A program made the position numbers and the translations under genes. From Escherichia coli (GTDB lineage Bacteria > Pseudomonadota > Gammaproteobacteria > Enterobacterales > Enterobacteriaceae): a stretch of DNA of 64,000 nt. Positions 13,491 to 60,530 of the stretch are shown in pieces. Position 1 is the first letter of the stretch. Every line of letters starts with the position of its first letter. The notes beneath the pieces are model-generated. The model was not told where the DNA came from, made no database searches, and was given only the letters and a program-made list of their open reading frames with translations. Where the stretch lies: the NCBI RefSeq assembly GCF_044324785.1, contig NZ_CP172127.1. One strand, given 5' to 3'.

Positions 13491-14446
13491 TGAAGCAACT
13501 TTGGTTTGCCATGTCATTAGTGACAGGTAGCCTGTTATTCTCTGCTAACGCCTCGGCCACTCCCGCGTCCGGGGCGTTATTACAGCAGATGAACCTGGCC
13601 AGTCAGTCACTGAATTACGAGCTGTCATTTATCAGCATCAATAAACAGGGTGTTGAGTCTCTGCGTTATCGACATGCACGCCTCGATAACCGTCCTCTTG
13701 CACAATTGTTGCAAATGGATGGCCCGCGCCGGGAAGTGGTACAGCGCGGCAATGAAATCAGCTATTTTGAACCGGGACTTGAACCGTTCACGCTTAATGG
13801 CGATTACATTGTTGATTCTCTGCCATCGCTCATCTATACCGATTTCAAACGCCTTTCTCCTTACTACGACTTTATCTCCGTCGGGCGCACGCGTATTGCT
13901 GATCGTCTTTGCGAAGTCATTCGCGTGGTTGCCCGAGATGGTACACGCTACAGCTACATCGTGTGGATGGACACCGAATCGAAATTACCGATGCGGGTTG
14001 ATCTCCTTGATCGCGATGGTGAAACGCTGGAACAATTTCGCGTGATTGCTTTTAACGTCAATCAGGATATCGGCAGCAGTATGCAGACGCTGGCGAAGGC
14101 AAATTTGCCGCCGTTGCTTTCTGTTCCTGTAGGTGAAAAAGCTAAATTCAGCTGGACGCCAACCTGGTTGCCACAGGGTTTTAGCGAAGTTTCCAGTAGT
14201 CGACGTCCGCTACCGACGATGGACAACATGCCTATCGAATCACGTCTCTATTCCGACGGATTATTCAGCTTCTCGGTAAACGTTAACCGCGCTACGCCAT
14301 CGAGCACCGATCAGATGTTGCGCACCGGGCGCAGAACCGTCAGTACAAGCGTACGTGATAACGCCGAAATCACCATTGTCGGTGAACTGCCGCCGCAAAC
14401 GGCGAAACGCATTGCCGAGAATATTAAGTTCGGGGCAGCGCAATGA
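13490..14446 (+). CDS. rseB: SigmaE regulatory protein RseB
   Basis: 318 aa with signal peptide; start overlaps the rseA stop (TAATG). Confidence 0.95.
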   Translation: MKQLWFAMSLVTGSLLFSANASATPASGALLQQMNLASQSLNYELSFISINKQGVESLRYRHARLDNRPLAQLLQMDGPRREVVQRGNEISYFEPGLEPFTLNGDYIVDSLPSLIYTDFKRLSPYYDFISVGRTRIADRLCEVIRVVARDGTRYSYIVWMDTESKLPMRVDLLDRDGETLEQFRVIAFNVNQDIGSSMQTLAKANLPPLLSVPVGEKAKFSWTPTWLPQGFSEVSSSRRPLPTMDNMPIESRLYSDGLFSFSVNVNRATPSSTDQMLRTGRRTVSTSVRDNAEITIVGELPPQTAKRIAENIKFGAAQ

Positions 14447-14922
14447 TCAAAGAGTGGGCTACCGTCGTCTCCTGGGAAAACGGGCAGGCGCTGGTTAGTT
14501 GTGATGTTAAAGCCTCATGCAGCAGCTGCGCTTCACGCGCCGGTTGCGGTAGCCGCGTGTTGAATAAACTTGGCCCGCAAACCACGCATACCATTGTCGT
14601 ACCCTGTGATGAGCCGTTAGTGCCGGGGCAAAAAGTGGAATTGGGGATCGCCGAAGGCAGCCTGCTTAGCTCCGCATTACTGGTTTATATGTCGCCGCTG
14701 GTGGGATTATTTCTCATCGCTTCGCTATTTCAGCTACTCTTTGCTTCAGATATTGCAGCATTATGCGGTGCGATTCTCGGTGGCGTTGGTGGATTCCTGA
14801 TTGCACGTGGCTGCTCTCGAAAGTTTGCTGCCCGGTCTGAATGGCAACCGATCATCTTAAGCGTGGCATTGCCGCCTGGCCTTGTGCGATTTGAAACATC
14901 TTCGGAAGACGCGAGCCAGTGA
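14443..14922 (+). CDS. rseC: SoxR-reducing system / sigmaE regulatory protein RseC
   Basis: 159 aa; N-terminal Cys cluster and two TM helices; start overlaps the rseB stop (ATGA). Confidence 0.9.
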   Translation: MIKEWATVVSWENGQALVSCDVKASCSSCASRAGCGSRVLNKLGPQTTHTIVVPCDEPLVPGQKVELGIAEGSLLSSALLVYMSPLVGLFLIASLFQLLFASDIAALCGAILGGVGGFLIARGCSRKFAARSEWQPIILSVALPPGLVRFETSSEDASQ

Positions 14923-15119
14923 TTTCACTGGCTTTGTTGCATTTTGCATAACAAATGCGAGGACGTTTCCAGATACCACAATCCATACGGTATGAACATT
15001 TCCTCGCCTCAATGTTGTAGTGTAGAATGCGGCGTTTCTATTAATACAGACGTTAAGCTCAGAACAGCGACTTCTAAAAGCCTGGTTAACCGGGCATTAA
15101 GGCACAATAATCATACTTT

Positions 15120-16919
<1,800 letters not shown>

Positions 16920-18013: not shown

Positions 18014-18054
18014 ATTCCCCCGAAGTTTAAGGTTGGCACCTCCAGGTTGCCACG

Positions 18055-18148
18055 GCACACGAAACAGCGTTGGTCCCCATATACCGGTAAACTGAAACTG
18101 CAGCGAAGCAGTTAGCAGAGCCATGTATATCAGGTCTGTTTCGTGTGC
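18055..18148 (+). promoter_or_regulatory. rnc 5' leader stem-loop (RNase III autoregulatory target)
   Basis: Perfect 13-nt arms GCACACGAAACAG (18055-18067) and CTGTTTCGTGTGC (18136-18148) enclosing 68 nt, 34 nt upstream of the rnc ATG. Confidence 0.7.
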
Positions 18149-18151
18149 TGA

Positions 18152-19764
<1,613 letters not shown>

Positions 19765-21644: not shown

Positions 21645-21726
21645 TTATAAAGTAAAACCCCCGAACTGGTAAGGAACGGGGGTTTTACTTTTTAACTTTA
21701 ATTTTGTGCAGCACACGATTCCAACG
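21645..21726 (-). ncRNA. ohsC: Probable OhsC antitoxin sRNA of the shoB type I toxin-antitoxin pair (boundaries approximate)
   Basis: Plus-strand 21706-21724 (GTGCAGCACACGATTCCAA) repeats shoB 5'-UTR 21955-21973 at 18 of 19 positions, so a minus-strand transcript is antisense to the shoB leader; candidate minus-strand -10 CATAAT (complement of 21733-21738); terminator at 21652-21688. Confidence 0.35.
21652..21693. terminator. Bidirectional intrinsic terminator (acpS on plus strand; probable OhsC 3' end on minus strand)
   Basis: GTAAAACCCCCG / CGGGGGTTTTAC 12-bp stem with T-rich flanks on both strands. Confidence 0.75.
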
Positions 21727-30904: not shown

Positions 30905-31088
30905 AGTGGCTCATTCACCGACTTATGTCAGCCCCTTCGGGACGTGCTACATAAAATTCGAATGACGCACAACAAGGTGCCTGCCGTCCAACTTCTGATA
31001 TCAGCGTAGCTATATCAACCATCGGGCGAAACGTCGAGTTAGGCACCGCCTTATTCCATAACAAAGCCGGGTAATTCCCGGCTTTGTT
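30905..31088 (+). ncRNA. glmY: GlmY small RNA (SroF/tke1), about 184 nt
   Basis: Starts about 12 nt after the -12 element (AGTGGCTCATTCACC...) and ends at terminator hairpin AAAGCCGGG taatt CCCGGCTTT (31063-31085) plus GTTGT; in the purL-glrK gap next to the GlrK/GlrR genes. Confidence 0.75.
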
Positions 31089-57998: not shown

Positions 57999-58802
57999 TT
58001 AACGCTTCAGGGCGTCGCTTAACTCGTCACGCATGTTCGCCAGCATGGCTTTAACAACGCGCGGGTTACCAGCAACGATGTTACCGGTCAGCATGTAGTT
58101 ATGACCACCGGTGAAGTCGCTGACGATGCCGCCCGCTTCACGAACCAGCAGCTCGCCTGCGGCGAAATCCCACGGACGCAGACCGATTTCAAAGAAACCG
58201 TCAACGCGACCCGCAGCAACGTAAGCCAGATCCAGCGCCGCAGAACCGGTACGACGGAAGTCAGCGCATTCGTTGAACAGTTTGCCGACGATGTTGATGT
58301 AGGTGGTGGCGTACTGTTTTGCTTTGAACGGGAAGCCGGTCGCCAGAATAGTACCGTCGAGATCGCGAGCGGTGCTGCCGCGCAGACGGTAGCCGTTCAG
58401 CTGTGCGCCCTGACCGCGAGTGGCGGTGAACAGTTCGTTACGCATAGGATCGTAAACCACAGCAACTTCAGTGCGGCCTTTGATACGAACGGCGATAGAT
58501 ACCGCGAAGTGCGGCAGACGTTTGATAAAGTTGGTAGTGCCATCCAGTGGATCGATAACCCATTGAACATCCTGATCAGTACCTTCAAGTTCACCGCTTT
58601 CTTCGGTGATGATGGTGTGCTGTGGGTAAGATTTACGAATCGTGTCGATAATCACCGCTTCGGCAGCTTTATCTACGTTGGTCACGAAGTCGTTACTGCC
58701 TTTCTGGCTCGCTTCTACAGCGTCCGGGGTTTCATAGTTTTTGGCAATTAAATTACCCGCCTTGCGCGCTGCGCGCACGGCGATGTTCAGCATCGGATGC
58801 AT
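57999..58802 (-). CDS. suhB: Inositol monophosphatase SuhB
   Basis: 267 aa; IMPase motifs DPLDGT and WDFAAG. Confidence 0.97.
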   Translation of the reverse strand: MHPMLNIAVRAARKAGNLIAKNYETPDAVEASQKGSNDFVTNVDKAAEAVIIDTIRKSYPQHTIITEESGELEGTDQDVQWVIDPLDGTTNFIKRLPHFAVSIAVRIKGRTEVAVVYDPMRNELFTATRGQGAQLNGYRLRGSTARDLDGTILATGFPFKAKQYATTYINIVGKLFNECADFRRTGSAALDLAYVAAGRVDGFFEIGLRPWDFAAGELLVREAGGIVSDFTGGHNYMLTGNIVAGNPRVVKAMLANMRDELSDALKR

Positions 58803-58920: not shown

Positions 58921-59661
58921 ATGCTGCAAAATATTCGAATTGTGCTGGTGGAGACGTCACACACCGGCAATATGGGTTCTGTTGCCCGTGCCATGAAAAC
59001 AATGGGATTAACCAATCTGTGGCTGGTTAATCCACTGGTGAAACCTGACTCCCAGGCGATTGCCCTGGCAGCAGGGGCCAGCGATGTGATTGGTAATGCT
59101 CATATCGTCGATACGCTCGACGAAGCGTTAGCCGGTTGTAGCCTGGTGGTGGGCACCAGCGCACGCTCCCGCACGCTGCCGTGGCCGATGCTCGACCCGC
59201 GCGAATGTGGTCTGAAAAGCGTCGCTGAAGCGGCAAATACCCCGGTGGCGCTGGTTTTTGGTCGTGAGCGTGTTGGCTTGACCAATGAAGAGTTGCAGAA
59301 ATGCCATTATCATGTCGCGATTGCTGCGAACCCGGAATACAGTTCGCTGAACCTGGCGATGGCGGTTCAGGTTATTGCCTATGAAGTGCGCATGGCCTGG
59401 CTGGCAACTCAGGAAGATGGCGAACAAGTCGAGCATGAAGAGACGCCGTATCCGCTGGTCGATGATCTGGAGCGTTTTTATGGTCATCTGGAACAAACGC
59501 TGCTGGCAACCGGTTTTATTCGTGAAAACCATCCGGGGCAGGTGATGAATAAATTGCGCCGTCTGTTTACCCGTGCGCGCCCGGAAAGCCAGGAATTGAA
59601 TATCCTGCGCGGGATTCTGGCTTCTATAGAGCAGCAGAATAAAGGTAATAAGGCCGAATAA
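58921..59661 (+). CDS. trmJ: tRNA (cytidine/uridine-2'-O)-methyltransferase TrmJ (YfhQ)
   Basis: 246 aa SpoU-class methyltransferase. Confidence 0.95.
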
Positions 59662-59669
59662 CAGTGGTT

Positions 59670-59753
59670 GCCTGATGCGACGCTTAATGCGTCTTATCAG
59701 GCCTACAATGTACAGAACCGTAGGTCGGATAAGGTGTTCACACCGCATCCGAC
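59670..59753. repeat. REP/BIME pair between trmJ and iscR
   Basis: GCCTGATGCGACGCTTAATGCGTCTTATCAGGCCTAC and GTAGGTCGGATAAGGTGTTCACACCGCATCCGAC in inverted arrangement. Confidence 0.8.
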
Positions 59754-59799
59754 AACAGGTACAAACGCCACGATAAAAAAATGGCACTGAAGGTTAAAT

Positions 59800-59880
59800 A
59801 CCCGACTAAATCAGTCAAGTAAATAGTTGACCAATTTACTCGGGAATGTCAGACTTGACCCTGCTATGCAATACCCCCAC
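59800..59880 (+). promoter_or_regulatory. iscR promoter with tandem IscR type-1 binding sites
   Basis: AAATACCCGACTAAATCAGTCAAGTAAATAGTTGACC and AATTTACTCGGGAATGTCAGACTTGACCC upstream of iscR; match the recalled IscR autoregulatory sites. Confidence 0.7.
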
Positions 59881-59930
59881 TTTTACAATAAAAAACCCCG
59901 GGCAGGGGCGAGTTTGAGGTGAAGTAAGAC

Positions 59931-60419
59931 ATGAGACTGACATCTAAAGGGCGCTATGCCGTGACCGCAATGCTTGACGTTGCGCTCAACTCTGAAGCGG
60001 GCCCGGTACCGTTGGCTGATATTTCCGAACGTCAGGGAATTTCCCTTTCTTATCTGGAACAACTGTTTTCCCGTCTGCGTAAAAATGGTCTGGTTTCCAG
60101 CGTACGTGGACCAGGCGGTGGTTATCTGTTAGGCAAAGATGCCAGCAGCATCGCCGTTGGCGAAGTGATTAGCGCCGTTGACGAATCTGTAGATGCTACC
60201 CGTTGTCAGGGTAAAGGCGGCTGCCAGGGCGGCGATAAATGCCTGACCCACGCGCTGTGGCGTGATTTGAGCGACCGTCTCACCGGTTTTCTCAACAACA
60301 TTACTTTAGGCGAACTGGTTAATAACCAGGAAGTGCTGGATGTGTCTGGTCGTCAGCATACTCACGACGCGCCACGCACCCGCACACAAGACGCGATCGA
60401 CGTTAAGTTACGCGCTTAA
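59931..60419 (+). CDS. iscR: Fe-S cluster regulator IscR
   Basis: 162 aa Rrf2-family; cluster-ligating Cys residues (CQGKGGC...C). Confidence 0.97.
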
Positions 60420-60530
60420 TAAAAAGTATTCAGAATCAGGCCGGAGTGTTTAACACTCCGTAAACACGGTCGTACATCCAGCCGGTAGCCTGGTTCCTTG
60501 CATTGAGTGATGTACGGAGTTTATAGAGCA

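Follow-up and report, generated by a model that had tools for sequence, protein, structure and literature searches.

The 50 bp from position 59798 to position 59847 of the window (the whole stretch of Escherichia coli DNA that was analysed, 64 kb) are almost certainly the operator of the iscRSUA-hscBA-fdx promoter. The operator consists of two abutting type 1 sites for the regulator IscR and serves feedback repression of the operon. A sequence-only reading had placed two adjacent IscR elements here. This main call was correct, yet the operator that it described is already known, being that of the characterised E. coli promoter PiscR.

IscR autoregulation is the central homeostat by which the synthesis of Fe-S clusters is matched to demand, in E. 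coli and in many pathogens. Its workings were elucidated from 2001 to 2013, and the same laboratory is still refining them. The present analysis holds no new biology on the sites themselves. It corrects their register and the assignment of the -10 element, and it shows that the design, an abutting pair of sites with an embedded promoter, is deeply conserved in 81 sequences from four gammaproteobacterial orders.

Two abutting type 1 sites upstream of iscR

The interval 59800-59880, in which the elements had been noticed, falls between trmJ and iscR on the E. coli chromosome. The list of open reading frames gave the following genes around it:

57999-58802, minus strand: suhB
58921-59661: trmJ
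Also in this neighbourhood: yfhR
59931-60419, plus strand: iscR coding sequence of 162 aa, annotated as iscR in RefSeq, encoding the regulator that binds the sites
Downstream of iscR: iscS, iscU, iscA, hscB and the first part of hscA

The gene order trmJ-iscRSUA-hscBA is common to the window and K-12 MG1655, and every base between about 59753 and the iscR ATG is identical in the two. The operator and promoter thus identified do not differ from K-12 PiscR (Schwartz 2001; Giel 2006, 2013). Of 5426 complete E. coli genomes, 5425 matched a 301-bp query that takes in the interval, and every match was chromosomal and between trmJ and iscR. For a 91-bp core (59785-59875), identity was 99% or more in 5344 of 5424 genomes.

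The type 1 consensus, ATASYYGACTRWWWYAGTCRRSTAT (25 bp), the wording of which was checked in two papers, was scanned for on both strands with up to three mismatches. The 64 kb gave two matches and no more, and no match was obtained in any of 100 shuffles. The two matches were:

59798-59822, no strand assigned: IscR type 1 site A, ATACCCGACTAAATCAGTCAAGTAA, one mismatch to the consensus
59823-59847, no strand assigned: IscR type 1 site B, ATAGTTGACCAATTTACTCGGGAAT, three mismatches to the consensus; it is the primary operator and overlaps the -35 and the spacer

The sites abut exactly, with a joint span of 59798-59847, and the pair lies 84-133 bp 5' of the iscR ATG. Two adjacent IscR type 1 elements of about 25 bp were thereby borne out. 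All the strings that had been named for them were present (CCCGAC at 59801-59806, AGTC at 59814-59817, ACTCGGG at 59838-59844, GAC at 59852-59854 and TATGCAAT at 59865-59872), but the register had to be changed. The interval 59800-59880 misses the first 2 bp of site A, and its part from 59848 to 59880 belongs to neither site. CCCGAC is indeed within site A. ACTCGGG, on the other hand, had been taken for the start of a new site, whereas it forms the right half-site of site B, in which TTGAC (59827-59831) forms the left. The GAC that had been paired with ACTCGGG belongs to the -10 region.

Type 1 half-sites are partly asymmetric: one side has TTGAC and the other, read on the complementary strand, has CCGAC. 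As the consensus itself is a perfect palindrome, orientation was judged from this asymmetry. Site B has GTTGAC as its left half-site and CCCGAG (reverse complement) as its right. Site A is the mirror of this, with CCCGAC on the left and CTTGAC (reverse complement) on the right. Both have A/T-rich ends (ATA...TAA in site A and ATA...AAT in site B). Aligned to site B, the E. coli site A gave 19 identities out of 25 with the reverse complement and 14 out of 25 in the direct orientation. The 'tandem' pair in E. coli is really a 50-bp dyad. Such a mirrored arrangement fits independent, non-cooperative binding.

Judged by their motif, sites A and B are type 1 and not type 2. The type 2 sites (hyaA, sufA and ydiU) are bound by the same protein and also have the -35 hexamer embedded in them. 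They differ in their motif, which has symmetrical CCxYA half-sites, in being bound by both apo- and holo-IscR, and in giving activation or repression. At erpA (yadR) and nfuA (yhgI), the 25-bp type 1 motif is used for repression of Fe-S biogenesis genes specifically by holo-IscR. These two are described as having one site each in Yersinia, in contrast to the abutting pair here, and neither promoter is in the window.

Conservation was followed in one genome per species, which gave 80 iscR loci from Enterobacterales, Vibrionales, Alteromonadales and Aeromonadales, and 81 sequences with the window. Site B was present in all 81 with no more than five mismatches. In 76 of the 81, a second site with no more than seven mismatches preceded site B by exactly 25 bp; in two Rheinheimera the distance was 26 bp, making a total of 78 at 25-26 bp. 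Neighbouring offsets had means of 15-17 mismatches. In the DNA flanking the 80 loci, background 25-mers with no more than seven mismatches occurred at 1.4e-4 per position, and those with no more than five at about 1e-5 per position. Site B was more strongly conserved than site A.

These results bear on whether the two elements might be a chance resemblance in A/T-rich intergenic DNA, with no specific binding. The general A/T richness of the interval, and nothing more, speaks for this, and its probability is negligible. The empty shuffles, the background of about 1e-5 for comparable 25-mers and the conservation in a fixed register in 81 sequences from four orders all argue against it, and it is refuted by published data on direct binding.

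Site B kept one polarity in every species: its TTGAC was always on the left, where it also serves as the -35. The polarity of site A flipped among lineages. Two Pantoea loci (L035 and L039) had a third, weaker type 1-like 25-mer (6-7 mismatches), 25 bp upstream of site A at about -137 from the iscR ATG. In many species GGTTAAAT recurs ahead of both site A and site B. The third 25-mer of Pantoea and the recurrent GGTTAAAT hint that sites were once arrayed at intervals of 25 bp in an ancestor.

The published experiments on E. coli PiscR apply to this DNA. A 30-bp "type 1 (iscRB)" oligonucleotide, AAATAGTTGACCATTTTACTCGGGAATGTC, was used for the binding of [2Fe-2S]-IscR (2025, Kiley laboratory; PMC12594620). 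It is the same as 59821-59850 of the window except for one base, T in the oligonucleotide and A in the window and MG1655, at 59834. This position is W in the motif, and T is natural there in Pseudocitrobacter, Cedecea and others. The mismatch is probably a typing error or a harmless variant. The exact letters of the sites were not found by text search of the papers covered.

[2Fe-2S]-IscR binds iscRB, and the isc operon is repressed via the type 1 sites; apo-IscR is inactive at PiscR, and oxidation of the cluster weakens binding (PMC12594620 and others). In PiscR-lacZ fusions, full repression was reported as 32-fold and PMS gave an 8-fold derepression, and the level in delta-iscR was about twice the PMS-derepressed level. 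At E. coli PiscR either of the main sites, A and B, is bound independently, and a "minor, nonconserved site C" was reported in addition. For the latter, we give a location with low confidence, the coordinates being a guess:

59846-59870, no strand assigned: candidate location of the published minor IscR site C

The half-site in this candidate, ATGTCAGACT, matched ATASYYGACT at 7 of 10 positions, and the full 25-mer had about 14 mismatches. Across species, only a slight enrichment was seen at the corresponding offset of +23 from site B.

The regulator encoded in the window, a [2Fe-2S] protein of the Rrf2 family, passed the NCBIfam equivalog model NF008110 (344.7 bits against a cut-off of 275) as well as TIGR02010 (220.2 bits against a cut-off of 207.55). 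C92, C98, C104 and H107, which are the cluster ligands of IscR, and E43, its specificity residue, were all readable in the 162-aa translation. Going by this translation, the iscR gene is intact. The proposed feedback repression of isc by holo-IscR thus holds, with DNA that is that of K-12 PiscR, an intact IscR, and published binding and repression on PiscR.

The predicted promoter and its overlap with site B

When the 81 sequences were anchored on site B, a TTGAC, a TG and a -10 hexamer were found in a fixed register to it. In the window these elements are:

59827-59832, plus strand: -35 hexamer TTGACC, in the left half-site of site B, recognised by conservation and spacing
59847-59855, plus strand: extended -10, recognised by conservation and made up of TG (59847-59848), T, and the hexamer CAGACT (59850-59855)
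59863, plus strand: predicted transcription start, a G, 7 nt after the -10 (plausible range 59862-59865)

In the -35, each of T, T, G, A and C was conserved in 79-81 of the 81 sequences. The TG was conserved in 79; its T is the last base of site B and its G is the next base. In the -10 hexamer, A2 was kept in 77, A4 in 68 and T6 in 80, and positions 1, 3 and 5 varied freely. The spacer between TTGACC and CAGACT is 17 bp. This conserved pattern, TTGAC-17 bp-TG-n-nAnAnT, strongly suggests a sigma-70 promoter of the extended -10 type. Both the -35 and the spacer thus fall within site B, which reaches as far as the TG of the extended -10.

A simple scan with the sigma-70 consensus called no promoter in 59600-60000. 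It missed this one because CAGACT matches the consensus at only three of six positions. We did not accept the empty result as evidence that a promoter is absent, the weak -10 hexamer being compensated by the TG.

The conserved sequence GCTATG starts 6-8 nt past the -10 throughout the clade of Escherichia, Citrobacter and Enterobacter, in which the leader is long. In the 2006 and 2013 work of Giel, site A reportedly spans -65 to -41 and site B -40 to -16. A start at about 59863 would agree with these coordinates and with the geometry of the Pseudomonas aeruginosa promoter.

PiscR of P. aeruginosa likewise has two abutting 25-bp type 1 sites just upstream of the transcription start, which has been mapped, with site A at -67 to -43 and site B at -42 to -18 (Romsang 2014; Saninjuk 2019). 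Its site B, ATAGTTGACCTAATTACTCGGATAA, is nearly identical to the E. coli site B, and binding likewise needs cluster-loaded IscR. The two systems differ in how the sites are filled. The primary one in P. aeruginosa is site B, and a higher concentration of IscR is needed before site A is filled, whereas in E. coli either site is reportedly bound independently. Also, no site C was footprinted in P. aeruginosa, whereas the minor site C was reported in E. coli.

The sequence-only reading had placed the IscR sites upstream of a -10-like TATGCAAT (59865-59872). If this were the -10, the sites would lie upstream of the core promoter, and repression would not act by occlusion of the -35 and spacer. 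A TG (59862-59863) one base before TATGCA does make it resemble an extended -10, and GCTATG is conserved in the Escherichia/Citrobacter/Enterobacter clade. However, neither hexamer in it is complete, TATGCA being without T6 and TGCAAT without A2. There is no -35-like hexamer 16-18 bp upstream, where GGAATG, GAATGT and AATGTC are all poor. The later bases vary even in close relatives (CAAT, CAAC, CAAA, TGAC and TAAC), and the motif is missing from about 60 species with short leaders. What is conserved instead in nearly all 81 sequences is TTGAC-17 bp-TG-n-nAnAnT. Moreover, the mapped start of P. aeruginosa follows site B by 18 nt, a distance that would put it at about 59865 in the window.

Conservation thus argues against TATGCAAT as the -10, and we consider that assignment very unlikely. 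Most likely, TATGCAAT is initial transcribed sequence, from +3 to +10 of the predicted transcript. The sites are not upstream of the promoter, as site B itself embeds the -35.

In the operator that we favour, one IscR dimer with a reduced [2Fe-2S] cluster binds each of sites A and B. Holo-IscR on site B would block the sigma-70 RNA polymerase by excluding regions 4 and 3 of sigma-70. We infer steric occlusion as the mechanism of repression from this geometry, in which site B holds the -35 and the spacer and borders on the extended -10. Site A, at roughly -65 to -41, would cover the position where the C-terminal domain of the polymerase alpha subunit is expected.

The Isc machinery encoded downstream in turn loads the cluster onto IscR, completing a negative feedback loop. 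Since the cluster of IscR is loaded by the Isc proteins, repression rises when the supply of Fe-S clusters exceeds demand, and falls when clusters are scarce, oxidised or destroyed. No substantive evidence against the operator was met in this analysis.

A candidate mar/sox/rob box next to site A

A perfect mar/sox/rob box was found next to site A:

59781-59799, plus strand: ATGGCACTGAAGGTTAAAT, which fits the mar/sox/rob box consensus AYNGCACNNWNNRYYAAAY perfectly and shares 2 bp with site A

The wording of the consensus was confirmed in a paper. ATGGCACTGAAGGTTAAAT is its sole exact match in the 64 kb, where 0.01 were expected. A perfect box was present at the same offset in 7 of the 80 sequences scored, in Escherichia, Citrobacter, Pseudocitrobacter and some Enterobacter, with variation at the N positions. 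The box reads forward, with its centre about 73 bp upstream of the predicted +1, and a gap of 27 bp separates it from the -35. By the class rules that Martin and colleagues are said to have set out in 1999, class I boxes are backward and upstream, and class II boxes are forward and overlap the -35.

In another explanation, the conserved block would serve chiefly as an activator or UP-type element, for example a class I site for SoxS/MarA/Rob at 59781-59799 with A/T-rich flanks, and IscR binding would be secondary. Besides the perfect box and its conservation in related genera, a paper on Klebsiella proposed a putative SoxS box in roughly this position, between -144 and -126 relative to the iscR ATG. 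In addition, PMS still raised PiscR-lacZ 1.5- to 1.7-fold in delta-iscR. Against this, the induction of isc by paraquat is independent of SoxRS, and faster without SoxR. The original authors rated the effect in delta-iscR as minor and IscR as essential to the response. iscR was not found among the MarA/SoxS targets in the supplementary material searched. The forward box, centred near -73, would also be non-canonical by these class rules.

Apart from the 2-bp overlap, the box lies outside both IscR sites and therefore cannot account for their conservation. That the block is mainly an activator element is highly improbable, and the operator made of sites A and B is preferred.

In isc regulation, the literature points to a role of the box that is probably minor at most. 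There is a small chance that it serves as a SoxS/MarA/Rob input, which would modestly boost isc transcription after IscR has left site A. If so, the box would explain the residual IscR-independent induction of PiscR-lacZ by PMS, and activator and repressor would compete for adjacent DNA.

The iscR leader and neighbouring elements

The predicted start defines a leader with the following features:

59863-59930, plus strand: 5' leader of iscR, about 68 nt, counted from the predicted +1
59896-59908, plus strand: putative small hairpin CCCC-GGGCA-GGGG in the leader
59916-59919, plus strand: Shine-Dalgarno sequence GAGG in the leader

The leader of the Escherichia/Citrobacter/Enterobacter clade is about 40 nt longer than that in most other Gammaproteobacteria sampled. 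The small hairpin was present in all 13 aligned members of the clade and is preceded by an A-run. One compensatory change, from C-G to G-C, was seen in the 13 sequences, and this was equalled in 40 of 500 shuffles. The fold of the leader was not more stable than that of shuffled sequences (z = +1.18). On the minus strand, 59896-59908 reads like an intrinsic terminator, with a hairpin followed by a T-run.

A 16-nt inverted repeat (59849-59864 and 59902-59917) was also considered as an RNA structure. This is unlikely, because most of its first arm is upstream of the predicted +1.

A REP-pair (BIME) element at 59661-59756 lies past the trmJ stop codon and ahead of the iscR promoter. The window has one copy and MG1655 has three, and the intergenic regions are 269 bp and 451 bp long, respectively. 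The 301-bp query was covered to at least 80% in only 3988 of the 5425 genomes because of differences in the number of these copies.

One E. coli genome, that of strain 27992 (NZ_CP195627.1; a blood isolate from Egypt), has a 44-bp deletion that corresponds to 59763-59806 of the window. The deletion, at about 2480-2500 of this locus (L083), is flanked by AC microhomology. Site B and the promoter remain intact, but the marbox-like element is lost together with the left half of site A. Its frequency was 1 in 5424 genomes, and it may be an assembly error.

Rfam gave the following RNA elements in the window, of which the four besides the iscRS element were noted as above the gathering score:

60420-60529, plus strand: iscRS 'iscR stability element' (RF01517, 131.7 bits), in the iscR-iscS intergenic region
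14407-15238, minus strand: AsrC
18022-18236, plus strand: rncO
21649-21725, minus strand: ohsC
30905-31052, plus strand: GlmY

The iscR stability element is a target of RyhB, which thereby uncouples the expression of iscR from that of iscSUA. AsrC is an antisense RNA of the rseC mRNA.
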